A DNA stretch of 62,059 nt, counting the filler. It is 12 parts of 12 records of this genome, joined end to end, with 100 filler letters (N's around TTAATTAATTAA, not from the genome) between each part and the next. Parts side by side here need not be neighbours in the genome. Positions count along the whole stretch, not along the records: positions 53,767 to 62,059 come from SRR15195285_11662; 11 more parts are not named here. The stretch is one strand, 5' to 3'. Shown here piece by piece: positions 19,294 through 59,912 of this stretch (the stretch's first letter is position 1; every line of letters starts with the position of its first letter). The notes beneath the pieces were generated by a model, which saw only the letters and a list, made by a program, of their open reading frames with translations, was not told where the DNA came from and did no database searches. Position numbers and translations under genes: made by a program.

Positions 19294-22200
19294 TTACCAT
19301 ACGCCGATCGAGTCTCGCGCTGCGTACCGCCGTACGATCTCGTCCGCCATTGCTTCATGCTCGTGATTGAGGTTGCCGCCGGCAGGCCGCATCGCGAGAA
19401 ACTCTTGATGCTGAAACAACCGCGCGATCGCCGGGTCCTTGCACGCCTGCTGCTGCTCCTCGCTTCCAAAACTCCAGCTACACGACACCACCTCGAGGTC
19501 AACATCCTGAGTAACAGTAGCGGCAATCGAGCGCTGATGACTGAGTCCTTTCTGATGGACTGCGTTGCGAAGATGCTCAAGGACAGCAGGGTCTAGCAGT
19601 GCCCCATCGGTCAACACGATGAGCAGCCGCCGCGCCGCCTTTGCCGACTCCGTGCCACCGACCGAGAGTCCACGAGCGCGCAGCGAGCTCTGAAGGCTCG
19701 ATGCTGCCACATCGCCAGCTGGTGTGGAGTGAACGATTGCCACGTAGATGCTTTCGGGCTGGGCCAATGCTGCTGGCGCCGTCGGTGCACGCGCGAACGT
19801 AGACGCTTGGCGCGCTAGGCCACCGACAGGGACGGACGTTGTGCGCAGCAAATCGTCTGGAGACGTCAGGCTCGAAATGCTGTGCAGCCCATTCCTAGCC
19901 AAAATCGTCGCAATCATCGCGTTTGACTCGAAGTTGCGTCGGCGGTACGGAATCATCTGATCGATGTTGGCGTGGATCACGCCGGCAACCGTCTCCATCA
20001 TGTGTGTAGCCGCCGCTTTTCCACGACCCTCAACCTTGGCCAGCTCCTCTTTGCACCATGCATGCTCGTCGCTTGTCTTGCACTCTTGTGTCCACTCGTC
20101 GTAGTTGAACGGGTTGAAGCGCGGTTCAGTCTCGCACACAAGCATCACGTCCTTTTCCAGTTTGGCCGCGACGAAGATTTCCTCGATGCAGTACGGACGG
20201 AAAAGCACACCGTGCGTCAACACGAGCATGAAACACTGTGAATCCTCGACACCTTTTCTCATGCCTTCGAGGGTAAGGTTGTCCGCCTCCATATCGAGCC
20301 AACAAGAACAGCCCGACTTCTCTAGCATAAGGTATAGGCTGCGCACGAGGTCTGCCGCCTCCTTCTGAAAGTGTGATAGGAAAAAGTGGGTCGACGAAGG
20401 AACTGGTGCAGGTGTGGGCGCGTCCACTGAGAGGAATCGATGCGCCAGAATTTGACTCATCGACGGGCGTCTCGACGGGTCGGCCTGCAGGCAACGTGCG
20501 ATCAGGTTTTGTGCAGCTGAACGCTGCGCGTCTGTGCACGCGGAACTCTCGGCGAACACTCTCGCGAGCCGCGCATTGTCGATCGTCCTCCAGTTCAAGA
20601 GCTCAATCTTGCTTGTTGAGTCGTTCAGGTTGTCGTCAGACCGATCGGCATTGAACAACGGCAGGCTAGCGGCCAGCTCGTACAGCACACAGCCAAGGCT
20701 CCAGCTGTCAATTGACGTCGCCGAGACAGGTGGCTCAGTAGTCCCCAGAAGGATATGCGTCACGAGCTCCGGCGGGGCATACGCGGTCGAGGCCTTCAGG
20801 CCGGCCCCCCAGGCAGGTATCTTGCTCCCTATTCGGGACGCGGCATCCATGTCGATGACGCACAAGCGGCTGCTGCCATCATCTGCTCTAAAGCGGCAGA
20901 AGTTGCGCGGCTTGACGTCGCTGTGGACCAGACCTTGCTGATGCAAGTGCTGCAGACACTGTGTCATCTGCATGACAGCTAGCCGCACCCACTCTACGTC
21001 GCGCCCAACCTTTCGTTCGCTGCTGACAGCATCGAAGAGCGAACAATCACCAAGTGGCATCGCGAGCAGGAACTCAGACTCATCCACTTGCTGTCCCGAA
21101 GCACCATGGCGATGGAGCCGTCGAGCCCTCTCTGCTGGATCGATGCGCATCGCTTCTCGAACTCCAACGACATACCTCTCCTCCAGGTGACACTCTCGCC
21201 GCGCTGACACTTCCCGGTCCCACTCGGTCTCCTTTCGCATGATCTTGACGGCGACTGCGGCTTTCTCACGGCGCCGCTCGAGATCCACGCCCTTGAAGAC
21301 GATGCATGTCTCCGACTGATGAAGCTGGTCGAGGAGGCGGAAGCGGCCGGCATAGCTACCGTAAGTTCTTGACCATTCCCGGAGCGCAGCAACAGTGCTG
21401 TTGCTGGAGATAGCTGCAGGCGTGGTGTGTGAACCCGCGTCTCCGTTCAACTCAGCATGCAGATCGCCACCGTACTCGAGCAACAAACTACAGAGCGTGA
21501 GGTCCAGGTTATCGCCGCAGGTTGTTGCGAATAGAACAGCGCAGTAGAGCGGAGTGCGGCCATTTTTGTCTCTGCCGCGAGGGTCCGCCCCTAGTTCCAG
21601 CGCAAGCTGCATCGCACGATCGACGCGGCGACCCCATGCACCATCTGTGCGTGTGCGCAATATGAAGTCAGATCGATCGATACCTTGGCCTCGACAGAAG
21701 GACAGCATTGTGTCCGGCTCATCGTCGACAAGCATGGATGCGAGCCACTGCAAGACTGTGTTACCCTCCGCATCGGTGGCTTCGATGCCAGCCTGCCCTG
21801 ACGCAATGATGAGGCGTGCTGCGTCTCGGCGCTCCGTAAGAAGTGCCAATCGAAGTGCAGCGTGCTGCTGCTCAGTGCTACTGAAGGCACTCCCTCCATG
21901 ATCCAGCACAGTCTCGAACAGCTCTTGACTACCGAGCACAGCAAGGACGAGCGGTGATGATGTGCCACGCGGCAGCACGAAACGCTTCGGACGTGAAGTG
22001 CCCAGCAATCCCTTTAAACTGTACAGAGCGTCCACTTCTGCATCCTCCTCTGGAGTCTCACTCCCCCTTGCTCCTGATTTGTGCCGGTTGCCAAAGAGCT
22101 TGCCGACCTGCCTGGACACGGTTCCCAACAGCTTGGCACAAGACGCAATGCATAAAAGCCCAGCGGTAAAGAAAGGGCCTGCCTGAATTGATTGTACTAG

Positions 22201-23811
22201 GCGCTGAACAACCATGTTGACTACAGGGTAGCTCTTTGGTACGCCAAGCAGGTCTGAGTGAACGTCTAGCCCACGCGACAGCGCAGCTCGCGCCTGGTCC
22301 TCGTCGTCTACAAGCATCGACACGTCAAAAACTGCACCAGGCTGGCCATGGCAAGTTCTGACGCATCGCAAGAACCCAGCATCATCGGGTGTACGATCGC
22401 CCGGCTTGCGGTCCGGACTAAGCCGGGGACAGCCGACACAGACACGCCGTAGACACTTGGCATATCGAGGATTGCGGCCAGCCGACGCTTCGGCCACGTC
22501 CTCGGTGTCTCCAAATTCGTTGGCCTTCTTTGTCTTGCTGTCCTCCGCCTCCTGCCACGAAGTCACGCCTGGCCATGGATCAATGAACCTTTGGACAACG
22601 AAGATACCCAAGACCAGGCGCGCGAACACATAGAAAAGGAAGAGCGTCTCCGGCTGATCGTATTTGCACTCGAGTGCGGAGGTGTCGCAGTCCATCGTGT
22701 CGTTGCGTGTAGCGGCTTCAGCGCACGTCACCGTTGTGCACATCGACGCCCCGGAGACGCCACATGTCGGATTGCACTGTGTGCTTCTCACGATGGAGCA
22801 GTCTTCGTCGATGGCGTCGCATGAACTCTCGCCCTGGATATCTTTGCAACCAAAGCATGTGTTCGTGTTGTCACAGTAGTAACCTGCGTTGCAATTGGTG
22901 TGCGCCCGGCATTCGTTCGATTCGGGCTGGGCGCCACTGCGAATGTCTCCAGTCGGCACGATGACCAACCGCAGCCGCTCACTGCTCGCGATCTGCAAGT
23001 CGTACGCACTATCGGCTCCACATCTGCACGCGACCTCCTCACCATAGTCCCAGCGAATTCGGATCCACCCTGGATCCTCCGCACCGCAGGAGCCTATTGT
23101 GACCCCACCAGCTCTCAGATGATTGTCGAGCTCTGCCGCCGAGATGAAACCAGAGTGATTGGGGTCGAACGATTCGAACTTGTCCCTGTCGTAGACGCGG
23201 TGGTGCACATCAGCGCGATGTGCATCGAACTCATCCGGCGAAACGAAGCCGGAGCTGTCGGTATCGCCGAACGCGTCAAATGAGTTGTGTGTTTGATCGT
23301 ACTGCTGCCAAACGGGGCCTCGGATCACTTGCAGGCCGGCGACACCGTTGCTCTCCGTTACCGGCTTACCTACAACGTTGCCCAGCTCCGTGCCATTCCA
23401 GTCTGCGACCTGAAAGTACTGGTGTGCGGTGTCGTCGGCTGTACTTTGGAAGTCGCAGTTGTACAAGACGGCCAGGCGCGTGAGCTCGTAAACTGCAGGC
23501 TCAATTGGCAAGTACGCGGCCAGGAAGCAGAATAGGTGCACGCGCCACCTCCACACCGGCGCCCAGATCAGCACGTCCGCGTAGCCTAGCGTCGTGGTCG
23601 TCTGCCGATCCGCGCAGGTGTGCTCGTGCTCGCGGACGGCCTGGAACGAGTCATGTTCGAAACCACACCCAAAATCGCAGCAGAACTTGGGCTGAAGCGA
23701 TGCCACTTCTTCGGCACCAGCAGCGCCGCTGCTGGCGTCGACCAACGGGTTCGCAGTCTGGCACACGGGCTCCTCCGCGCCACCGGTCTCGTCGAAGAGC
23801 GCCTGCTGCAT
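19294..23811 (-). CDS. Multi-domain membrane protein: Zn-finger, TM, split MIB/HERC2 + EF-hand pair, Cys-rich region, TM, ankyrin repeats, protein kinase, TIR, degenerate TIR
   Basis: Single 1505-aa ORF. Kinase motifs VAVK, HSDVKPRN, IDMD, STAYAPPE, DSWSLGCVLYEL. Ankyrin motifs SPLVLAV, GNTVLQW, GRTPLYCAV. TIR motif FFLSHFQKE...WLDM...EGMRKGVEDS..F...LT...RPYCIEEI. Confidence 0.85.
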   Translation of the reverse strand: MQQALFDETGGAEEPVCQTANPLVDASSGAAGAEEVASLQPKFCCDFGCGFEHDSFQAVREHEHTCADRQTTTTLGYADVLIWAPVWRWRVHLFCFLAAYLPIEPAVYELTRLAVLYNCDFQSTADDTAHQYFQVADWNGTELGNVVGKPVTESNGVAGLQVIRGPVWQQYDQTHNSFDAFGDTDSSGFVSPDEFDAHRADVHHRVYDRDKFESFDPNHSGFISAAELDNHLRAGGVTIGSCGAEDPGWIRIRWDYGEEVACRCGADSAYDLQIASSERLRLVIVPTGDIRSGAQPESNECRAHTNCNAGYYCDNTNTCFGCKDIQGESSCDAIDEDCSIVRSTQCNPTCGVSGASMCTTVTCAEAATRNDTMDCDTSALECKYDQPETLFLFYVFARLVLGIFVVQRFIDPWPGVTSWQEAEDSKTKKANEFGDTEDVAEASAGRNPRYAKCLRRVCVGCPRLSPDRKPGDRTPDDAGFLRCVRTCHGQPGAVFDVSMLVDDEDQARAALSRGLDVHSDLLGVPKSYPVVNMVVQRLVQSIQAGPFFTAGLLCIASCAKLLGTVSRQVGKLFGNRHKSGARGSETPEEDAEVDALYSLKGLLGTSRPKRFVLPRGTSSPLVLAVLGSQELFETVLDHGGSAFSSTEQQHAALRLALLTERRDAARLIIASGQAGIEATDAEGNTVLQWLASMLVDDEPDTMLSFCRGQGIDRSDFILRTRTDGAWGRRVDRAMQLALELGADPRGRDKNGRTPLYCAVLFATTCGDNLDLTLCSLLLEYGGDLHAELNGDAGSHTTPAAISSNSTVAALREWSRTYGSYAGRFRLLDQLHQSETCIVFKGVDLERRREKAAVAVKIMRKETEWDREVSARRECHLEERYVVGVREAMRIDPAERARRLHRHGASGQQVDESEFLLAMPLGDCSLFDAVSSERKVGRDVEWVRLAVMQMTQCLQHLHQQGLVHSDVKPRNFCRFRADDGSSRLCVIDMDAASRIGSKIPAWGAGLKASTAYAPPELVTHILLGTTEPPVSATSIDSWSLGCVLYELAASLPLFNADRSDDNLNDSTSKIELLNWRTIDNARLARVFAESSACTDAQRSAAQNLIARCLQADPSRRPSMSQILAHRFLSVDAPTPAPVPSSTHFFLSHFQKEAADLVRSLYLMLEKSGCSCWLDMEADNLTLEGMRKGVEDSQCFMLVLTHGVLFRPYCIEEIFVAAKLEKDVMLVCETEPRFNPFNYDEWTQECKTSDEHAWCKEELAKVEGRGKAAATHMMETVAGVIHANIDQMIPYRRRNFESNAMIATILARNGLHSISSLTSPDDLLRTTSVPVGGLARQASTFARAPTAPAALAQPESIYVAIVHSTPAGDVAASSLQSSLRARGLSVGGTESAKAARRLLIVLTDGALLDPAVLEHLRNAVHQKGLSHQRSIAATVTQDVDLEVVSCSWSFGSEEQQQACKDPAIARLFQHQEFLAMRPAGGNLNHEHEAMADEIVRRYAARDSIGVW

Positions 23812-36129: not shown

Positions 36130-39100
36130 TTAAAGTGTGATGTCACTCTTCTGTCCGCTGGCATACATGGACATTTCCATACCATCATCTGCAGCGGCGG
36201 CTCCCTTCTTCCCGCCGCACACCGCTTTTGCGACGATGGCTCCGACCAGCAACCCACCAAAAAACACCGCCGCGAGGGTGCCCATTCCAGAGCCAGTCTG
36301 AGACTGAGCGTCCGCCTCGATATCAGTGATAGCCGCCCCAATGCTGTCATCGCACGGCGCTGTTGTAGCGCCGCTGTCACTATTCTGGTTTGAGGAATCA
36401 GAACGACCGCTGGGAGAGCGGCCTCCTGGTTCAATAGTGGCACACAACCACCGGTCACCGTTCGGTTTGTGGATGACGATTGAACGGCCGACGACGGAGT
36501 CATCACCGAAGAGTGGCAAGTCAACGACAGTCACGCCGACTTGTTCGACGCGCGCAGTGCTCAGTGTGCCAACTTTGGCTGAAAGCGCCCAGACATCGGT
36601 CTGGTAGCCTGTCGGGGAGTAGTGGCCACCAGTGGAAGCACAATCTGAGTCGCCGAGCACAGCACTCTCATGAACATGAAATGCACAGCCTGGAGGCGTC
36701 GCGCATTCCGTTAGACCGCGAAACTCGAGCGCCACGGTGCTAGGGTCATCAGCCTTCGGCTGTTCGATTACAACACGACCGCGCACGCTGCCGGCGCGGA
36801 AGGAGGCAGTCGCAATCGCGCCGCCAACAGTGAGCTCGACAGAGTCAGAGATGGTGTTGACGCCCTCTGTAGAGTAGACCTCGCAGCGGTAGGCACCGAT
36901 ATGGCAGTCGTCAACATGGGCAATCGTAAAACGCGGGAGAGTCGCGCCGAAGATCGGCACGCCGTCCTTTAACCACTGGTAGATGTATGGTTTAGCCCCA
37001 CCGTGCACGGTGACTGAGAATGATACCCTCGAATTGTGCTCAACCTCTAGGAGCCCACCGTCTGGGGATTGGTTGCTGACGACGATGGGTGACACGTCAG
37101 GGTTCCAACCCTTCTGGCCTATGAACCGATCGAATAGAGCCAAAGCCTTGACTGGTTCATCCTTCGGGACCATGTGTCCGGCGTGGTACACCGTGGCGAA
37201 AGTGAACTCCTTGTCATCCGCCGTGCGCCATGAGGAGACATAGCCGCCCACCTGGTTATCGACAATCCAGGGTGTCCAGTCATCTACAGTTGTGTAGTGG
37301 TTGGCCGCGGCGACGTCTTTGGTCCACGACTCGGTGCCAATATAAGGAACGCACGCGTCAACATCGCCAGAAAAGATGAGCACGTGGTACCGCTCGATCA
37401 GGGCGGGGAACCGTGGTAGCAGCGTTGACGTTGCACCCCGCTCATAGTCGACATTTTTCATGCCACAATCGCGCCAGAGGTAGGAGCGTGGACTATCGCC
37501 GTACATCTCCTTCATCTCGTTTTGTGACTTGACGTGGATCGCTGCACGGACGTCGTCTCGGTTGAGCCACTGGGTCAGGCCGTCGCTTCCTCCCCAGCAG
37601 CCACTCAGCCCGTGCGCGTATAGGTCATCGCTGTCTGCTAGTCCCAGTTCATGCATCCATGCGGCCTCGCGATGAGGCTTTAGCAGCTTCACTGTATCAT
37701 ACATGTGCTGGGGCCCTGTTATCCGGGCCTCACGACGCGAAGTAGAACCGGCGCAGGCGGAGTCTTCATGCTCAGCCTCTTGAGTCTCTTGAACCCGGCG
37801 ACCTCCTACGCCACCACCACACATCTGCTGCACACGTTCTGCCTCGGCTGTTTCGTTGACCTGTGGGTCGTCCTTGCACGTGTCGTAGATGCCATATATG
37901 TTGAGCGTCCCCATGTCGTCCTCGTAGCGCCGTGTGGCTTCGCAGCAGCTGAAGTTGGGATCAGACTCCGGCTTGGGGCAGTACCAGTGGCAAGTACCGT
38001 TGGTCATACGTGGCCCGCGGCATTTGTCTGCCAAACCTTGATCGATGTCTCCGAAAACGGTCCGCGGAAGCTCGGTCACCCGTTCAGAACAATCGCGCCA
38101 GCCCAGCGGACCATGGCAGTTCGAGAGAACATCCTCGTACGTATCGTCTGAAATGAGCGCATGTTGGTGCGCGAAGCTGAGCTCTATTCCAGCAGCAGAG
38201 TCGAGGAAGTCCACGATGTTGGGACGCTCGCCACAACTGACTGTGTCGGTGCCTGTGCAACCGTTGCCCACCATGATGCCCTGCAGGTTCATCTGCTGGC
38301 CAATTGAGATATCCCCACCCTGGACCGTCTCTCCCCTGTCTTGGCCGAACATTATCTGCTCTGCCAAGGTTGGTACATAAATTCCTGCATAACTCTCACC
38401 CGTGAGATAGAGCTCGTTTTTACCAAATTGCGGGTAGCGTTCGTAAAAGCGCTTCATGAATAGGTAATTCATTTCAGCCGTGGAGTTGTCGTTGACCTTG
38501 ACATTTCGGCCGAAGTCACTTTCTGTCGTGTATGAAAAGCCGACGCCGATCGGCGACTCGAGGTAGATCATGTTCGCAGGCCCACACCATGTGTGAGCGT
38601 TATGCCCGACCTCTTTCGGGTCCTCCTCGTTGACACGCCAGGGACCCATTTCGGTGAATAGTCCACCCATGCTTGAGCAGCCCGGGCCACCGTTCAGCCA
38701 AAGCACAACTACGTGAAGCAACAGCGATTTCAACATGTTGTCAATTGACCGCAACTTGAATGAGAGCGACTGCAGCGCCGAGCTGTACACCGTGTCTTAC
38801 GCATACGCATCTAGACAGAAACTTACCAGGTGCGTGCGCAGGATCGACCTGCTCTGCCTCGACGAACCAGTAATGCAGCATCCTTTTGCCTGTGAATGGT
38901 GTGGGCATGTCTGCGCACGACACTGGAGCGCTGTCCCGGTCGTCGTCGCAGTCAGGGGTGACGTCGATGTACCCGGAGTACTGCTTGGAAGGGAATTGCC
39001 CAGTCCAGCCAGGGAGAGACTTGATCTCATCGGCTGTACATTCGGATGTAAGACATCCGTCGACAGTTGTAGCTACAGCTACCTGGACGCGCTCAGAAAT

Positions 39101-41394
39101 GGCGTATGTGCCATCCATCTCTTCAACACGGACGTGATACTCTCCAACGTGGCACGGTTCAGCATTGTCAACACTCATCTCCTCCATCGTCTCGCCAGGA
39201 AGAAGCGCACCGTCCTTGTACCACTGGTAAAGGTAAGGAATGCTGCCGCCCTCGACTTCGACTCTGAGAGTTATCCTGGACCCTTTGAAGACGGATACCG
39301 GTTGGGGCGCTGACGTGATCCTCACCGAATTGCTCTGCGGTGGCGCCCAGCCTTTGTTGTTGATGTAGCGGTCAAAAAGCGCTAGCGCCTTGCGGGGCTG
39401 GGTCTGTGGTACCATGTGCCCCGCACCAAAAACAGTGGCGAACGTGAACTCATGCGCTCCGGCGTCGTAGACGGTTACGTAGCCTCCAACCTGATCCTGA
39501 ACTGTCCATGCATGCCAATTTTCCGTGGGGGTCCACCGGTTGTCCACAGCTAACTCTTCAGTCCACTTCTGCGTGCCCGTGTACGGCACGCACGCGTCGA
39601 CATCTCCGGAAAATATCAGCACGCGGATATTCTCCACGAGGTACGGGTATCGAGGCATGAGCGAATGTGTGTAGCCGCGATCGTAGTTGAAGTTGCCGGA
39701 GCGCGAAGCACAGATGGACCAGTCCGCTCCGTCGTCTCCATACAGGTCAATCATCTCCTGCCGAGACATCACGTGGATCGCGGCGCGAACATCATCGCGG
39801 TTAAGGTACTCGGTGGCACTCTCGGTGCCACCCCAGCAGCCACCTAGGCCGTAGAGTTCATTCTCTACTGTCTCTTCGCGGTCGAAACGAGAAGATTGGT
39901 ACATAGACTCCTTCGCTTCCTCTGACCAAGTAAGGTTCCCCTGCCTGCCCTGGCGGCGGGCGTTGTCCTCCGGCCCGGCGGAGCAATACTCGTATATTCC
40001 ATACACGTCGAGATCTCCAATGTCGTCATCGTATCCGTCCATGGCATTGCAGCAGTCGTACATTGGGTGATTCGCCGAGAGCTTGCACGAATAGTACGGT
40101 GTCCCACCGCATCCGTCGCAGTAGCGTCTTGTCCAGCTGCTTTCGTCGTCGCAGCACCCAGTATCATTGTACGGCCCCCTGAGTCTGAACTCTCCGCGTC
40201 GCTCGTAGCCACAGTCTCGGTCGTCTTCCGCAACCTCGCCGTAGCGCTTCTCGCGACATTCGCTACGGGTGTTGAAAGTTGCTGGGGCAGCAGCACAGGA
40301 CGTCATGATGCTCTCGAAACTTGCGTGCGAGATGATCGCGTGGTCGTGCAGGAAGTTGACGCGCGAAGAGGCAGGGCTTGCCATGAATTCTGTCGTCTTC
40401 ATTTTCTCCGCATAAGCAGTTATCACTTCTGCTGGGGGCTCGCCGCAGCTCCAGGTCTCTTCGCCGTTGCACCCGTTCCCCACCAGGATGCCCTGCAGCG
40501 GCTGCGCCTCGCCTCGCCACGGCTTGGACCAGAGGTCAGGATCCTCGTTGTCGCGCCCCCATAAGATCTGCTCAGCGAGCGTGGGGATGTAGATACCAGC
40601 GTCTGTGGCGGCAGCGCACGGGTTAGAAAAAGCTCGCTTGCTATGCCCAACAGGAGTCTTGTCACGTGGAACTCCATCCAATACTCACAGCTTTCTCCCG
40701 AAAGGTAGAGGTCGTTGTGTTTGTACTCGTCGAAGGCTTCGAAGAACCGCTTCAGCCCCATGTAATTCATCGCGGCCGTGCTGTTGTCATTGATTGATGT
40801 CATATCCTCGCCGAGCGTGTGGTACGAGAAGCCGACGCCGACAGGAGCCTCCAGATAGATCATGTTCGAGATGGTCGTCCAGGCGTGCGGGTTGTGCTCC
40901 AGCTTGGTGAAGTCGCGGTCGTTGACGTGCAGCGGGCCCATCTCGTAGAAGAAGCCGTCCATGCTGCTGCAGCCGGGGCCGCCGTTCAGCCACAGCGTCA
41001 CAGGCGCCGTGCTCGGGTCCACCTGCTCCGCTTCCACGAACCAGTAGTGCAGCATCTTCGACTCGTCGCGCTCCTCGCTGATGTCGAGGTAGCCGCTGTA
41101 ATGCCTGCTCGGCAGGCAGCGCTCCGGCGGGTCGGCGGCCCGCGCGAAAGGTGGCACTTGCGCCATACCTGCTCCGTTGACTCACCACCTTGAGCAGCGC
41201 CCCAAAACAGCACAGAATATCACTGCAAAACTGATCAGTGCTCCGGCAAAAGAAGAAGAAAAAACGTGTTCGTCGGAACAGCAGGTACACTTCCAGCCAG
41301 GCAGCGCCCGGCCGTCTACGCGGTCCTCCTCCTTCATCGCCCTCGCCGCCCCGCCCAGCAAGCCCACCATCGCCAGCGAGCCTACCGCCCTCAT
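36130..41394 (-). CDS. Type I membrane protein: signal peptide, S10 carboxypeptidase, Ig, second S10 carboxypeptidase, Ig, Cu-only SOD-like domain, TM
   Basis: Two complete S10 sets (WLNGGPGCSS, GESYAG, SGDVDACVP, AGHMVP). Ig motifs YQWYKDG...GEYHV and YQWLKDG...GAYRCEV. SOD motifs FHVHE, TGGHY, SVVGRSIVIH, WLCATI. Introns 40688-40603 and 38826-38709 join the ORFs in frame; the first intron boundaries are uncertain. Confidence 0.85.
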
Positions 41395-53666: not shown

Positions 53667-54110
53667 NNNNNNNNNNNNNNNNNNNNNNNNNNNNNNNNNN
53701 NNNNNNNNNNTTAATTAATTAANNNNNNNNNNNNNNNNNNNNNNNNNNNNNNNNNNNNNNNNNNNNGGAGAAGCGGAAGGCTGCTGCTGGACAGGGAACA
53801 CGTGGAGGCTCCAGTTGATCCGTGAGTGGACTGTGTTCAGCTGTCTCTCTCTGTCTCTTTCACCTCTCTCACTCATGGACAAGTGAAGGGGTTCCTAGCT
53901 ATCGCACGTCCTGCGTCTCATACAGATTGTGTGGTTTGACGCCGCAGAGAGTACGGGACGAATCAACTGGTTCTGAGATGCCTTGTGCAGGGCGCCGGGG
54001 GTAGTAGAAGGCAGGATGATGATAGCACTGGGCTGCAAGGGCTTTCAGGGGAGCGGGAGAGGGAGGCCTCGCGTGAGTAAGTTCGTGTGAAGCGCTGACG
54101 TGAGCCATCC

Positions 54111-57100
54111 ATGCCGCGTCGAGGCTCCAGCATGAACGGGCGCGGAGGGAAGCCGGTGGCGAATCCGATGTACGCCGACCTGGACGCCCCGTTAGGCGGG
54201 TCCAAGGACGTGGTGCTTGGCTACGAGGACGTGGTGCAGGAGGGGCTCGGGGCAGCGGGCGAATACGACCGCCCAATGCGCGATGCCTGCTGTCGCAAGC
54301 GTGGCAACCTCGACCACAAAGTCTGCAGTGATATTTCCTGCGTGACGTTTCTCACGGTGCATGAAGTGAAGAACATCGAGATGGTTTTCAACCTGATCTG
54401 CAAGCTAGTGCACGATGAGGGTCGGCTCGAGTTCGTCACGCGCTACAGCAAGAATGCATCGCGGGAAACCGACAAGCACAGGCACATGGCGCTGACGACG
54501 GAGCAGCTCCGCGAGTATCTTCCCGAGTTTGCACAGAATGTGTTTCTGCCCCGGCTGATTCGCTTGTTTAGTGAAACGGGCGACCAGAAGCTGTCTGTTC
54601 TTGAGCTGATCGACATGTACTCCGCCCTCTCCCGTCGCGCACACCTGAAATGGAAGATGACAGTGGCGTTCTGTGTCTACGACTACGATGAGGACGGTGT
54701 GCTCGATGAGGGTGACCTGTTTCGTACCATATCAACGATGCTCACCGGTACCACGACGAGCAAGCGGGTATCTGCAGAAGCAGCGGCGCTGCGTATCCAA
54801 GCGCGGGCCCGCGGCCGCGCGGTGCGCCGCAAGCGCCCCCCTGGCGCCAGCCACAGCACCAGCGCCGGTGCTAGTCCAGGACCGATCGCTGGGTACGCGA
54901 CGCGGATTTTGAATGAGTGCAGCAGCATTCGTAGAGACATCATGGACTACCGGTACTTCGAGAAGCAGATGGCACTCGTCCCGACGTTCAGGGACAATTT
55001 TAGTGTCACACCGACCAAGTACAGCGAGATATACCGCCGGTACATGGCATATCAGAGGTTAAAGGTAATGTCCGACAGCGGCAAGCGAGCATGTGGCTCG
55101 TGCTGGGGTCGATTCTTCACTAGGCTCCCTGGTGAGCAGTCGATGACGGTGAGCAACCCAATGCTGTCCGGTGTTACCGATCCACTTATCCAGCAGGCGC
55201 TGGAGACCAGCAAACTCACTAAAGATGAGAGAGCGGAAGTGCGGCAGGCACTTGCGCCCAGCCTCACGGTGCACCGTTACTTTGCGAGCGAGATTGTCAT
55301 CAAACGTGGGTCAGAAGCGGATGAGATGTACTTAATTGTTGCCGGTGTAGCGGAGGTTTTGCTGGATCTTGAGAGCGAAGCTATCAACGAGCTCAAGCAG
55401 GATGACTATTTTGGAGAGATAGGTATGCTGCATGAGATCAAGTCGAAGCGCACCGCGTACGTTCGAGCAAAGACTGAGCTGGTTGTCTTGAGTTTGGGGC
55501 GGACAGAACTGCAAGCGCTGATGGCCGAGCACCCCAGCCTGAAAGTATCACTGCTTGCTCAAATGGACATCACCTTGGAACGAAATCATCTCAGGACTGA
55601 GGCGCAGTTGTGGAGCCGCTACGATCAGCACGAGACCGGATGGATCGTCGTGAAGGACTGCAGGAAGATGGTCCGGTGCATCCTCACAGAAGATGGACAA
55701 GTACGCAAGGGAGGCAATAAGAACAAGAAGGATCCGGACAGTATAGTGGGCATAGTCAATTTGCTTCTCACGCGCAGTTTTCAGTACGAGAACCAGGGCA
55801 AAGACTCCGTGTTCAAACCAGTGGCGACCTCTGGTGTCGTGCAGCAACAGCCGAAGCCCAGAACGTGGCTCAAAGCCGAAGCAGTCGCGCGTATCTGTTT
55901 CCATGAGTGGTGGGAGGAGCAGCCTACGCCGGTTCACCGGCATACGGCCAGCCGCTTGAAACTCGAGCGGATCTGGTCAGATCTCGACCACGACGACGAT
56001 GGTGTTCTGAACCAGAATGAGGTCCGTGCTTTGCTATTCCGGATGGGTGATTTCGCAGAGGATGAATTTGACGAAAAGGTGGAGCACTGGTTTGCGGCGC
56101 ATGATTCCGGGGGCGATGGCAACATCAGTATGAGGGAATTCGTACCGTGGTTCTGCGCACAAGACCCTCAAGCCATTGCGAGGGCAAATTACGTGGACTG
56201 GCGTCAAGTAAGCGATGAGCTACATCACAGAGATGCTGACGTGGTCTGGCGCGATGAGGACGTTGGCTTTGTCGCCAAGATGAAACAGATGGACGACGAA
56301 CTTGCGGGGATCGACGAGCGCCTTCGCGCTAATGATTCGTTGCTCAAAGATGACTATGACAGCGCCACCAACGTGCGCAGCATTCTTTCAGGGCGAGGCT
56401 GGGAGCCTTACGGCATCCACGGTGCTGTTCGGCCACCAATGATCCGAACTCGAATGCAGATATTCCGGAAACTCAACACAAAAGGTGACACGAAGTATCT
56501 GCGCGATGCTGAGCACCGTAAAGACCACTGGCGCCTCATGAAGACTATGGAAACTGTCGGACAGTCAGCCGATGCAGAGTTTGAGTACATCGGTGACATT
56601 TTGGGCGAATACACAGACACTGGAATCTTTGGTAGGTGTGGCTTCCTGCGGGTGCTGTATGACCTGAAGCTATGGATGAAGACGCACATTTTCCAGGCTC
56701 ATTTGGGTCTGTTTGAAACTTCGATCCTGCTTCTGGAGCATGAGTTTGGACACGGGATTTCAGAGGTGATGCGAATCATGAAGTGGATGCTGCTGCTCAA
56801 CCTTGGGCTGGGCATCATGTGGATGACGTTGGTCATCGTGCCACGCGATTATGCTCACTCTGATGAAACGATGTGGAATACCACCAAGCTTGTTCTGCGC
56901 GGACTTGCATTCTCAGGGTCGCAAGGCCGCAGCCTCTTCTACGACGGCTACGCTAGACAAAATGTTGAATTTTTCGGACTTGAGCTGCGTATGGATGTGC
57001 TGTACTTCGTCGCCATCTTGTTGCATGTACTTCTATCGCTATTTGCAATCCTCCGGACTCTCGGCATGAAGCTAACGACCCTGGCCCAAGGTGGCGTAGT

Positions 57101-59912
57101 GGGCCTTGACGTGGCAAGTGAGACAGGAGAGAACGTATTCGCTGTTCTTGGTTCATATGACTGCACGGTGTCGCAGGAACACTTCGCAACGGAGATGAGA
57201 CAGGGTATTCGGCACAAAGTTGAGATGGACTTGATGAGACGGGAAGAGAAGTTGAAACTAGAGGCAGTGCAACACAGCTGGACCAAGAGAATCTGTCACC
57301 AATTGCGGCAGAACAGTGGCCGTGCAGCAACCTTCATGCTGCTAGTGGCCCACGTGTACGTGATCACACAGGTCCTGAAATACGAGCAGGCAGTGGAAAA
57401 GATCCTGATTGCCCCGCTGAATCGATTAGTTGTACCGTTGATCATCTCAGTCCTCAATGTCACTGTACCGAAAGTCTTGCGCGTTATCGTCAAGCTCGAG
57501 GATCATCTCACTGGGCGTGAGGTCATCTACACCTATATGGGGCGGGTTTACATAGTCAAAATGGTACAGTTGTCTACCATCATGTACTCGATGGCGAAAA
57601 TCATGTCCGTCAATCAGATCAAACAGAGCTTAGTAGACACACGTCTAAATGCTGCGGAAGTTGGCGGCATCCTGAATGAATACTTTGACTCGGCTGTTGC
57701 CAACAGTGAGGCCAACTGCGATACAAGTGATGCTACGGCAGGATGCACGTGTACAGAGGCTCGTTTTGGCGCAATGTTCCTTCGCCTTGTTGTTACGGAC
57801 GCGCTGGTGTTCGTCGGCCGTGAACTGTTCATACTGTACAGCGTAAGGACTGGCCTCCCACGTTTCTGGAAGTGGAACCGAATCGTGAATCATTTTGGGA
57901 AGGGTCCGAATGCACCGACGGCAGATGCACAGGAGCATGGGTACAAACTGCAGCAGCGACACGCTGAGTTGCCGAAGCTCAATGTTGCCCGGAGCTTGCG
58001 CGATAGACTGGCACTCCGAACGCATCAGAAACCGACGGTGACATGGTGGAAATTGATTCCAAGGGATGATGGTCATTTGTTAACCTTCAAGAAGCAATCG
58101 ATGAACGCCTTTGTGGAAGGCCTGGATATCCGCGACCACGGTTTCGAAGGTCTAAGGATTCCAGACATGCGTACGTTCGCAAGCTGCCTCACTGACGCAA
58201 AGCTGGTCCTTATCGAGGACATTATGGACAACAATATCTCGCCTGAGCAGCTGACAGATATTGTCGAGCGGCGGCGAGACGGTCGTGATGGGCGCTGGAC
58301 AAAACTCAACCACCAAGACAAGTTCGCGCGACTCCGTAAATTATCGACGCATCAGATTAGATTCATCTGCGAGAAGCTGGTGGAAAGCGAAGGCACGTGG
58401 GTCGAAGTTACAGGCACAGTCGAGGAGCTTCGTCGCTACAAACTTCCCCGCCCGGAGTTCAGCAACTTTCGGTCTGCTCTCTTGATGATCGAGATGATGT
58501 ATCGACAAACGTTTGTTTGGGTTGGATCCAATTGGTGCCCGTGGTTGCCACTTGTGGCATGCCTGACGCAAATTGTCATCTTTGTCGTACAAAAACACGT
58601 GCTGCTGGCTGGAGCCTACCTGCGACCCGCTGCGCCCTGGTCTGCCGAACAGGCATTCAAGATCTTCATGCTATTTGCCCTTGGGACGCTTGGATTCACA
58701 TGCCTACCCACTTTGATCTGGCTGAACCAGGTGCCGACGTGTGGCCCACACCGTTTCGCCCCAGATGATTCTGACAGGGCGAAAGTGTTCGAGACTTTCG
58801 GTGTGTACCTGGATGATCTACCAAAGGAGCATTTGCTCAACGGCGAATTCACAGTCGTCTGCGCAATCCTTTTCAACCCGCCGAGCTTACTGATCATGCT
58901 GTCTGTGTTATGGACTCGCTATCGGTACGTTCAGACACAGCTCAAGACGACTCAGGTGCAGATTGCTAAGGTTGAAAAGGCATTCCACACGGAGAAGAAA
59001 TTTCTCACAACACGACTTCAAGATTTGACACAAAAGTTTGGCGGTGGCGAGCAGGACCTGGCCTACGCACAGAAGCGTTACGAGCGAGTGATGAGCCACC
59101 TAGACCAGCAACACCTCGATTGGATCATCAAGACGATGGGTGGGAAGCACCACATGCAATTCCTTGACCCCGATGAGAAAGGACTGGGTCCAACAGAGAT
59201 GCAAGCCTGGCTCGAGTTTGCTGCACATATTGACTTGGACAACAATGGTGTAATTCGTGCCGAGGAGAATTTGATGTGGACCAAAACAATCGAACAGAAC
59301 ACGATCGTCATCGTCAATCTTTCGCGCAAAGAGAGCAAGGAGAATTTCATTAGAGACTCGCTAACGCATCTTGGCGGGGGCTACAAGGCCAACATCATTG
59401 CCTGCACAGTGCGCAAATATGAGCATTCGGAAGAAAAGCAGCTCAACAAGACAAACCCCGACGAGAACGGGTTCAAGAACCGGTCGTGGGCACTGGTGAC
59501 ATTTATGAATGCGTCGAGTGCTGACCTCGTCCTGAAAGAATATGTGTTCGCAACCGACAAAGCATCCGCATCGTCAGCAGGAGTTAAAAGCTCGTGGGTA
59601 GCGCTCAAATGGGCAGTGGCGCGAACAACCGACTGGAACATCCCAGAATTGATTGGGGAGGTGCTTGGAGGCCATACTCCATCCACTGGTAGCGGTGGTG
59701 AAACAGCGCCGTCCGACACGGCTGGATTGTCCGATGACGACGAGGTTCAGAGCGTGAAGTTGCGGCGGCGCAACACGTCTGCCAAGCCACAAACCGAGAT
59801 TGTCCGAGAGCACAACAGTCGCTTGCATAAGGCGCTAGAGCGAGCTTTGGAGCTCAAGAACAAGGTGGACGAAGTTCACAAAGAGGTCATGGGTGAGGAA
59901 GGTGAAGACTAG
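54111..59912 (+). CDS. TMC: TMC (transmembrane channel-like) protein fused to N-terminal CIB-like EF-hand module, IQ motif, cyclic-nucleotide-binding domain, extra EF-hands and C-terminal RRM-like domain
   Basis: Single 1933-aa ORF. TMC hallmarks: LEHEFGHGI...MKWMLLLN, LFYDGY, CTEARFGAMFLRLVVTD (cf. CWET.VGQE..RL..D), EF...MMYRQTFVWVGSNWCPWLP, PWSA, CGP. CNB: FGEIGML...RTAYVRA. CIB: TFLT..E, LPEF..N.F..R..RLFS, AFCVYDYDEDGVL, P.F..NF. Confidence 0.85.
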   Translation: MPRRGSSMNGRGGKPVANPMYADLDAPLGGSKDVVLGYEDVVQEGLGAAGEYDRPMRDACCRKRGNLDHKVCSDISCVTFLTVHEVKNIEMVFNLICKLVHDEGRLEFVTRYSKNASRETDKHRHMALTTEQLREYLPEFAQNVFLPRLIRLFSETGDQKLSVLELIDMYSALSRRAHLKWKMTVAFCVYDYDEDGVLDEGDLFRTISTMLTGTTTSKRVSAEAAALRIQARARGRAVRRKRPPGASHSTSAGASPGPIAGYATRILNECSSIRRDIMDYRYFEKQMALVPTFRDNFSVTPTKYSEIYRRYMAYQRLKVMSDSGKRACGSCWGRFFTRLPGEQSMTVSNPMLSGVTDPLIQQALETSKLTKDERAEVRQALAPSLTVHRYFASEIVIKRGSEADEMYLIVAGVAEVLLDLESEAINELKQDDYFGEIGMLHEIKSKRTAYVRAKTELVVLSLGRTELQALMAEHPSLKVSLLAQMDITLERNHLRTEAQLWSRYDQHETGWIVVKDCRKMVRCILTEDGQVRKGGNKNKKDPDSIVGIVNLLLTRSFQYENQGKDSVFKPVATSGVVQQQPKPRTWLKAEAVARICFHEWWEEQPTPVHRHTASRLKLERIWSDLDHDDDGVLNQNEVRALLFRMGDFAEDEFDEKVEHWFAAHDSGGDGNISMREFVPWFCAQDPQAIARANYVDWRQVSDELHHRDADVVWRDEDVGFVAKMKQMDDELAGIDERLRANDSLLKDDYDSATNVRSILSGRGWEPYGIHGAVRPPMIRTRMQIFRKLNTKGDTKYLRDAEHRKDHWRLMKTMETVGQSADAEFEYIGDILGEYTDTGIFGRCGFLRVLYDLKLWMKTHIFQAHLGLFETSILLLEHEFGHGISEVMRIMKWMLLLNLGLGIMWMTLVIVPRDYAHSDETMWNTTKLVLRGLAFSGSQGRSLFYDGYARQNVEFFGLELRMDVLYFVAILLHVLLSLFAILRTLGMKLTTLAQGGVVGLDVASETGENVFAVLGSYDCTVSQEHFATEMRQGIRHKVEMDLMRREEKLKLEAVQHSWTKRICHQLRQNSGRAATFMLLVAHVYVITQVLKYEQAVEKILIAPLNRLVVPLIISVLNVTVPKVLRVIVKLEDHLTGREVIYTYMGRVYIVKMVQLSTIMYSMAKIMSVNQIKQSLVDTRLNAAEVGGILNEYFDSAVANSEANCDTSDATAGCTCTEARFGAMFLRLVVTDALVFVGRELFILYSVRTGLPRFWKWNRIVNHFGKGPNAPTADAQEHGYKLQQRHAELPKLNVARSLRDRLALRTHQKPTVTWWKLIPRDDGHLLTFKKQSMNAFVEGLDIRDHGFEGLRIPDMRTFASCLTDAKLVLIEDIMDNNISPEQLTDIVERRRDGRDGRWTKLNHQDKFARLRKLSTHQIRFICEKLVESEGTWVEVTGTVEELRRYKLPRPEFSNFRSALLMIEMMYRQTFVWVGSNWCPWLPLVACLTQIVIFVVQKHVLLAGAYLRPAAPWSAEQAFKIFMLFALGTLGFTCLPTLIWLNQVPTCGPHRFAPDDSDRAKVFETFGVYLDDLPKEHLLNGEFTVVCAILFNPPSLLIMLSVLWTRYRYVQTQLKTTQVQIAKVEKAFHTEKKFLTTRLQDLTQKFGGGEQDLAYAQKRYERVMSHLDQQHLDWIIKTMGGKHHMQFLDPDEKGLGPTEMQAWLEFAAHIDLDNNGVIRAEENLMWTKTIEQNTIVIVNLSRKESKENFIRDSLTHLGGGYKANIIACTVRKYEHSEEKQLNKTNPDENGFKNRSWALVTFMNASSADLVLKEYVFATDKASASSAGVKSSWVALKWAVARTTDWNIPELIGEVLGGHTPSTGSGGETAPSDTAGLSDDDEVQSVKLRRRNTSAKPQTEIVREHNSRLHKALERALELKNKVDEVHKEVMGEEGED

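Follow-up and report, generated by a model that had tools for sequence, protein, structure and literature searches.

The window analyzed here (the whole stretch of DNA, 62,059 nucleotides in length) harbors toward its 3′ end a single open reading frame (ORF) encoding P0001, a giant TMC-family membrane protein of an uncultured marine picoeukaryote. From its N- to its C-terminus, P0001 comprises a CIB-like EF-hand domain within which lies an IQ-type motif, a cyclic-nucleotide-binding (CNB) domain, a helical region, an EF-hand pair, pre-TM1 helices, ten transmembrane (TM) helices and a C-terminal tail. The CNB peptide quoted in an earlier note on this DNA is present letter for letter in the frame of this ORF, and profile searches and alignments confirm the CNB domain as real and complete, its ligand-contact Gly-Glu and Arg residues being present. 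The features of the locus are as follows; AF2 stands for AlphaFold2.

54111..59912, plus strand: ORF of the CIB-like/CNB/EF-hand/TMC protein P0001 (1933 codons plus stop)
54336..55025, plus strand: CIB/CALM-1-like EF-hand domain, split by an insert (residues ~76-305; phmmer, Foldseek and VIA-align)
54795..54827, plus strand: IQ-type motif IQxxxRGxxxR (residues 229-239; regular expression)
55173..55625, plus strand: CNB domain with flanking N-terminal helices and B/C helices (residues ~355-505; Pfam and PDB matches)
55275-55532, plus strand: Pfam PF00027 core of the CNB domain (residues 389-474)
55410..55469, plus strand: phosphate-binding cassette FGEIGMLHEIKSKRTAYVRA (residues 434-453, including G435, E436, R447, T448 and A449)
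55959..56153, plus strand: EF-hand pair (residues 617-681; PF13499, E 1.9e-14)
56517..59036, plus strand: TMC-fold region, pre-TM1 helices plus ten TM helices (residues 803-1642; AF2, Foldseek, VIA-align and profile)
57852..58454, plus strand: folded insert of about 200 residues between the sixth and seventh helices (residues ~1248-1448; AF2 model, shared with relatives)
58467..58610, plus strand: Pfam TMC PF07810 match (residues 1453-1500; profile positions 52-99 of 111)
59037..59909, plus strand: conserved C-terminal cytosolic region of ~290 residues (residues 1643-1933; shared with relatives)

The Pfam search that the earlier note had proposed returned PF00027 over profile positions 3-89 of 89 with an E-value of 8.4e-14 and a score of 51.8 bits, above the cutoff of 27.5, in agreement with the complete CNB fold described there. 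The interval assigned to the domain at the time, 55250-55540, brackets the beta-roll and the cassette, the whole domain extending over about 55173-55625. Searching PDB sequences with residues 340-520 of P0001 yielded 161 distinct chains at E<=1, with best E-values much too low to be fortuitous. The best matches were Plasmodium PKG (1.5e-13), yeast and mammalian PKA-R (9e-13 to 1e-10) and CRP; the bacterial cCMP/cUMP effector PycTIR (8.2e-7) and CNG and HCN channel chains (7e-6 to 6e-5) were also retrieved. In the PDB alignments, G435-E436 and R447-T448-A449 align with the Gly-Glu and Arg-Ser/Thr-Ala of PKG cassettes, and the cassette F-G-E plus Arg is kept in all four CNB-bearing proteins (P0001, P0003, P0005 and P0060), which bears out the earlier statement that the phosphate-binding Gly-Glu and Arg are intact. 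The CNB domains of cyclic GMP (cGMP)- and cyclic AMP (cAMP)-dependent kinases are thus the closest sequence relatives of that of P0001 and share its cassette pattern; the kinase domains, however, form a tandem pair that regulates a kinase, whereas P0001 carries a single CNB domain in a membrane protein. Word-based homolog searches with the CNB region returned only P0001 itself among longer proteins and no match among shorter ones.

The Arg-Thr pair of the cassette had been read as a pointer to cGMP, a reading that found no support. HCN channels carry Arg-Thr too, yet prefer cAMP. The residue following the cassette Arg is T in P0001, N in P0003, S in P0005 and T in P0060, such that even the closest ortholog, P0003 (64% identical), has Arg-Asn; since the Thr is not kept, the case for cGMP as the ligand of P0001 is weak. 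In a study of PKG I-beta (PMC3080414), the Thr of this site in CNBD-A is described as anchoring cGMP and as also present in CNG channels, and the isolated CNBD-A as preferring cGMP by about two-fold only. Arg-Thr would thus permit cGMP without predicting it, because the preference of the isolated domain is so slight. Another possibility is a pocket for a different small molecule, whether a purine nucleoside (the case in trypanosomatid PKA) or a cyclic nucleotide of the pyrimidine type. There is a precedent for such a change of ligand among CNB folds: the trypanosome PKA-R binds nucleosides, its Arg being replaced and a Glu two positions after the cassette Glu clashing with the phosphate (PMC10959531). 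The occurrence of PycTIR among the PDB matches could be taken in the same sense. In P0001, however, the phosphate-binding Arg is kept, the position of the nucleoside-binder Glu is occupied by Gly or Ala in all four CNB-bearing proteins, and the PDB chains most closely related to the domain are those of cGMP- and cAMP-dependent kinases, which makes such a switch of ligand very unlikely. With the Arg kept and Gly or Ala at the Glu position, a cyclic nucleotide is the more likely ligand of the CNB domain.

The membrane half of P0001 was compared with known folds in an AF2 model built on 49 sequences, which showed ten long helices with a mean predicted local distance difference test score (pLDDT) of 83.5 and a predicted template modeling score (pTM) of 0.79. 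Foldseek matched this region in the PDB to four C. elegans TMC-1/TMC-2 chains (E 1.9e-12 to 2.6e-11), the next match being TMEM16F at 0.15, and VIA-align superimposed it on TMC-1/TMC-2 with Z-scores of 37.5-39.0 (501-519 residues aligned, root-mean-square deviation 4.7-5.4, identity 15-16%), compared to 27.3 for TMEM16F, 25.2 for OSCA3.1 and 24.1 for TMEM63B. TMEM16/anoctamin and OSCA/TMEM63 proteins fall into the same structural superfamily as P0001 and are regulated by Ca2+ or membrane tension, but both structure searches placed them clearly behind TMC (Foldseek E-values of 0.15 and above). Membership of the TMEM16 or OSCA families was therefore rejected; the Pfam Anoctamin match to P0001 remained under its cutoff (11.9 bits versus 28), and Pfam revealed no ion-transport family in P0001 at E<=0.1. 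TMEM16 proteins sense Ca2+ inside the membrane domain; the putative sensors of P0001, unlike theirs, are soluble modules. The Pfam TMC family itself was matched with an E-value of 6.5e-9 (36.7 bits against a cutoff of 25), this match being only partial because the ~200-residue insert splits the domain. A profile built from residues 803-1642 of P0001 plus three relatives and searched against 1.84 billion representatives detected 566 proteins at E<=1e-3, the best 150 of which were mostly of ordinary TMC size and had strong PF07810 matches, down to E 1.4e-46. Three residues of the region (Q664, W668 and P675 in the numbering of the region) are conserved at 90% or more in the 49 sequences. As judged from both sequence and model, the membrane half of P0001 is a true TMC-fold, ten-helix domain. 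The earlier placement of a CNB domain inside a TMC protein thus holds insofar as both lie in the same ORF; the CNB domain does not lie inside the TMC domain, being part of the cytosolic N-terminal arm about 300 residues upstream of the TMC-aligning region, which starts at residue 803. A scan of metagenome contigs with the TM-region alignment gave 450 pattern matches, none of which was confirmed by tblastn, and the ESM Atlas held no usable match.

The window is a chain of metagenome-type contigs with N runs and the TTAATTAATTAA linker (11 linkers), and the contig carrying the ORF begins at 53767, only 344 nucleotides before the ATG, such that a chimeric contig or a read-through joining a CNB gene to a TMC gene might be envisioned. 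The ORF itself, however, contains neither an N nor a stop in 5,799 nucleotides, and its G+C content at third codon positions starts at 0.79 at the 5′ end and decreases gradually to about 0.61, that of the CNB segment (0.61) being the same as in the TM segments (0.60-0.61). P0003, which comes from another data source, is an ortholog that is colinear with P0001 over 99% of the query, and the order CIB-like, CNB, TMC is also that of P0060. Near-identical sequence was found in at least 19 runs from 14 studies, almost all of them marine or seawater metagenomes by label. When four of these other runs, from two studies, were compared over the P0001 region, their short contigs matched it with 0-5 differences each. 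Depth over the region covered 30 of 30 bins in the RNA-library run X1, 8 of 30 in the RNA run X19 and 22 of 30 in the DNA run X2; all runs being compared as contigs, these values speak neither of transcription nor of its level, and the uncovered parts carry no meaning. The eight joints listed in environmental contigs all fall at 53814-53932, none of them inside the ORF, and 12 of the 19 variant sites inside the ORF are synonymous. A chimeric gene was rejected on the grounds of the uninterrupted ORF, the shared order in P0003 and P0060, the uniform third-position composition and the lack of joints within the ORF, and we regard an artifact of this kind as hardly credible.

To place the fusion in the TMC family, PF00027 was counted at E<=1e-4 in the best 150 of the 566 profile matches. 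It was present in two of these representatives, P0001 and P0060, and missing from 148 of the 149 other than P0001 itself; none of the 111 canonical-size TMCs or other representatives outside the giant subfamily carried it. Rather than being already common and characterized, the combination of PF00027 and PF07810, as far as sequence searches can tell, is rare. Word-based search added P0003, with the CNB domain at the same place as in P0001, and P0005, with the domain at the extreme C-terminus. A hidden Markov model made from the four CNB domains found no further credible match in 155 proteins, the next best having an E-value of 0.41. The number of fusions counted is a lower bound: the representatives include many fragments, and P0005 falls outside the 150. 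Clustered at 90% identity, P0003 has 2 members, P0005 has 11 and P0060 has 16, all of metagenomic origin, NCBI and UniRef contributing none; the automatic JGI names of these clusters mention cAMP-binding and EF-hand parts, not TMC. The CNB-less relative P0008 bears the EukProt record name of a Picozoa single-cell genome.

A TM-domain tree was computed from 42 rows, of which 22 represent the giant subfamily together with its sister pair and 20 are the first canonical TMCs, other rows being excluded. The giant, EF-hand-rich subfamily formed one clade with a support of 100/100, its sister being the pair P0060 and P0032. When the four CNB-bearing rows were weighed against five CNB-less rows (P0006, P0008, P0013, P0015 and P0022), the presence of the domain needed at least two changes on the tree, and a single change sufficed in none of 200 bootstrap trees. 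The approximately unbiased (AU) test, applied to groups that were named after the tree had been seen, did not reject a clade of P0001, P0003, P0004 and P0005 (p 0.48) and rejected the same clade with P0060 added (p 0.00013). Two histories fit these results: several losses from an old CIB-like, CNB, TMC order, or more than one gain of the CNB domain; the C-terminal domain of P0005 represents a separate event under either scenario. Other TMC-like relatives carry adenylate kinase (P0010), PX (P0033), C2 (P0056) or SAM (P0104) domains, domain accretion being common in protist TMCs.

The CNB domain is embedded in an arm with further modules. The N-terminal domain was matched by PDB phmmer to C. elegans CALM-1 (4.1e-12), calcineurin B (3e-10 or weaker) and CIB3 (1.2e-9), and its AF2 model (pLDDT 80-93) was matched best by Foldseek to CIB3 bound to a TMC1 peptide (3.8e-7). 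VIA-align yielded Z-scores of 16.4 for CALM-1 (27% identity), 16.1 for CIB3 and 14.9 for CIB2, versus at most 13.2 for calcineurin B (18-21% identity), a modest margin for CALM-1, and the third EF loop ends in Asp like that of CALM-1, calcineurin B having Glu there. Among EF-hand families, the domain is thus closest to CIB/CALM-1, by a modest margin over calcineurin B. Proteins of the CIB type are auxiliary subunits on which animal TMC1/2 channels depend. By phmmer, it also occurs in P0003, P0006, P0007, P0008, P0013, P0015, P0022 and P0060; P0011 was matched in part and P0138 weakly. The insert between its third and fourth EF-hands contains the IQ motif, a pattern also found by regular expression in 6 of the 8 relatives that have the CIB-like domain; Pfam reported no IQ family in P0001 at E<=0.1, and the motif stands as a candidate calmodulin site.

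The best structural match of P0001, the C. elegans TMC-1/TMC-2 complexes, shares with it the ten-helix TMC fold and an associated CIB/CALM-1-type EF-hand module. In the worm structural work (PMC10895266), CALM-1 touches all six cytoplasmic helices of TMC. Unlike in the worm complexes, the CIB-like module of P0001 is part of the same polypeptide, its arm adds an IQ motif, a CNB domain and an EF-hand pair, and an insert of ~200 residues separates the sixth from the seventh helix, overall identity being as low as 15-16%.

Taking these elements together, we lean, if only slightly, toward P0001 being a working cAMP or cGMP sensor that would modulate a TMC-like channel or scramblase together with Ca2+. 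In the mechanism that we propose, cAMP or cGMP would be held by the cassette, E436 contacting the ribose 2′-OH and R447, T448 and A449 the phosphate, upon which the B/C-helix lid would shut over the base. The resulting movement of the CNB domain would shift the cytosolic assembly and alter the ease with which the TMC pore or groove opens; the movement would be transmitted because the CNB domain forms part of the arm running into the pre-TM1 cytosolic helices. It is on this cytosolic face that animal TMCs hold their CIB partner. The cyclic nucleotide monophosphate (cNMP) would act as a modulator beside Ca2+, the latter sensed by the EF-hands, the CIB-like domain and possibly calmodulin on the IQ motif, rather than as the sole gate. 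Ca2+ input is plausible given the EF-hand pair (E 1.9e-14), the CIB-like domain and the IQ motif. That P0001 might be gated mechanically, or by cNMP, we purely infer. A bolder proposal, which we consider doubtful, is that P0001 constitutes a self-contained animal-type mechanotransduction complex made of a TMC pore, a cis-fused CIB-type subunit and cNMP and Ca2+ sensors between them, in which cNMP would directly gate or strongly tune the pore.

Known channels and transporters offer partial parallels. CNG and HCN channels, of which MloK1 and SthK are bacterial relatives, resemble P0001 in that a CNB domain with an intact cassette is joined to a membrane protein. The membrane domain of P0001, however, has the TMC fold, in contrast to their tetrameric, six-helix, voltage-gated-like pore, and whereas their CNB domain is C-terminal, behind a C-linker, that of P0001 is N-terminal (residues 355-505) and about 300 residues away from the membrane domain. 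By analogy, P0001 may work like these channels; with neither their pore fold nor a C-linker-coupled C-terminal CNB domain, it is not one of them. The sperm Na+/H+ exchanger SLC9C1 provides a precedent: without being a member of the CNG/HCN family, it is a membrane transport protein fitted with a CNB domain. Its transporter fold, with a voltage-sensor domain, is unrelated to TMC.

Several observations weigh against a sensor of this kind. In the AF2 model of residues 70-520, the CNB part has a pLDDT of 30-55, such that the pocket lacks structural confirmation and nothing is drawn from its geometry; strands, a short helix and two C-terminal helices follow one another in this low-confidence part in the order expected of a CNB fold, and it is from there that the Foldseek matches to CNG/HCN (about 5e-5 to 2e-4) derive. 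Identity between P0001 and P0003 is 55.9% in the CNB domain, as opposed to 70-85% in the TM parts, 76-84% in the CIB-like domain and 49% in the linker, and both CNB variant sites of P0001 in the environmental contigs (A411T and V413A) are non-synonymous. Among the nine proteins with a complete N-terminal arm, as indicated by the presence of the CIB-like domain, three (P0001, P0003 and P0060) have the CNB domain and six (P0006, P0007, P0008, P0013, P0015 and P0022) do not, P0007, P0015 and P0022 being cut within the TM domain, so that their CNB-less status holds for the part up to the cut and they may carry a C-terminal CNB domain; the family therefore works without a CNB domain. About 300 residues, among them the EF-hand pair, separate the CNB domain from the pre-TM1 helices, P0001 shows no evident counterpart of the CNG/HCN C-linker, and our literature searches retrieved no protist TMC with a known activity.

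The modest conservation of the CNB domain (55.9% to P0003, about the level of the neighboring linker), its absence from 6 of 9 complete arms and its low-confidence model would also suit a ligand-free CNB-homology module like that of KCNH channels, serving as a structural or protein-docking element of the arm. Ligand-free domains of this type lose the Gly-Glu and Arg-Thr-Ala residues, however, whereas these are all present in P0001, Gly-Glu and Arg are kept in four of four otherwise very divergent CNB-bearing lineages, and the alignment of P0001 with P0003 has just 2 gap columns in 145 aligned residues. We find a ligand-free module unlikely. The position of the domain, far from the membrane domain in sequence and with other sensor modules in between, raises another alternative in which cNMP is bound but acts on trafficking, assembly, localization (for example to the flagellum) or turnover rather than on gating. 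The CNB domain of P0005, located at the opposite, C-terminal end, is in keeping with this alternative in that no fixed geometric link to the pore would be needed; in CNG, HCN and SLC9C1, on the other hand, the CNB domain acts on transport activity, and an output of this sort appears improbable for P0001. 

TMC1 and TMC2 form the pore of the hair-cell transduction channel; how they are regulated is debated, and the two proteins do not lend themselves easily to work outside native cells. A TMC that naturally carries its own sensors raises the testable idea that soluble second messengers act on the cytosolic face of TMC proteins, and a second one, that a CIB-type subunit is an ancient and obligatory TMC partner. 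The fusion of two genes is a classical sign that their products are functionally linked, and the cis fusion of a CIB-like domain with TMC suggests that the TMC-CIB partnership is older than animals; a single chain combining both might further ease expression and structural study. Were the pore gated by cNMP, P0001 and its relatives would make up a second class of cyclic-nucleotide-gated channels, unrelated in structure to the first, or else would be cNMP-controlled scramblases, and would offer a clue to environmental sensing by tiny marine heterotrophs, while the occurrence of CNB-TMC fusions in non-monophyletic lineages, at either end of the protein, would reflect repeated selection for coupling. 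Should cNMP not bind, the fusion would merely be a further case of domain accretion in a protist family with adenylate kinase, PX, C2 and SAM gains. Full-text literature searches returned no paper describing a CNB-TMC fusion and no relevant paper on a CIB-TMC fusion in protists. By term search, neither "cyclic nucleotide" nor "EF-hand" occurs in the main text of a survey of the anoctamin superfamily (PMC5868767) or in that of a study of TMC paralogy (PMC7003098).

Two further regions of P0001 are shared with its relatives. The insert between the sixth and seventh helices, common to P0003, P0004, P0008, P0009 and others, including many members of the giant subfamily, is mostly modeled by AF2 with a pLDDT of 82-94 (dips to 60-72) and includes a conserved ERRRDGRDGRW stretch; it belongs to no known family, and PDB phmmer found nothing for it below E 0.17. 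It directly follows the helix that we take to align with the gating helix of TMEM16 proteins. The C-terminal region, common to P0003, P0004, P0005, P0008 and P0025, had no PDB phmmer match at E<=1 and no Pfam match, and contains an EF-loop-like DLDNNGVIRAE at residue 1708.

Upstream of the ORF, a 42-nucleotide element at 53929-53970 occurs once in the window and had a much higher contig depth (20-84 compared to about 2-5); in marine contigs, from metagenomes as well as metatranscriptomes, its flanks were many and varied. Rfam gave no match on the 5′ flank of the ORF, this element included. The element could represent a short repeat dispersed in genomes or else a motif of wide occurrence.

Elsewhere in the window, TTAATTAATTAA was found 11 times (6798, 11969, 15763, 18884, 24029, 27169, 30294, 33724, 42123, 49309 and 53711), the copy at 53711 being flanked by N runs. 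The window thus appears to string together separate contigs by means of a linker with stops in all frames, in which case gene neighborhood across those points would be meaningless. An ORF at 19294-23811 on the minus strand (1505 amino acids) combines an EF-hand, ankyrin repeats, a protein kinase and a TIR domain in an unusual signaling architecture. Two more minus-strand ORFs, at 36130-38790 and 38741-40681, pair serine carboxypeptidase S10 with Ig-like domains, the former also carrying a C-terminal Cu/Zn superoxide dismutase domain.

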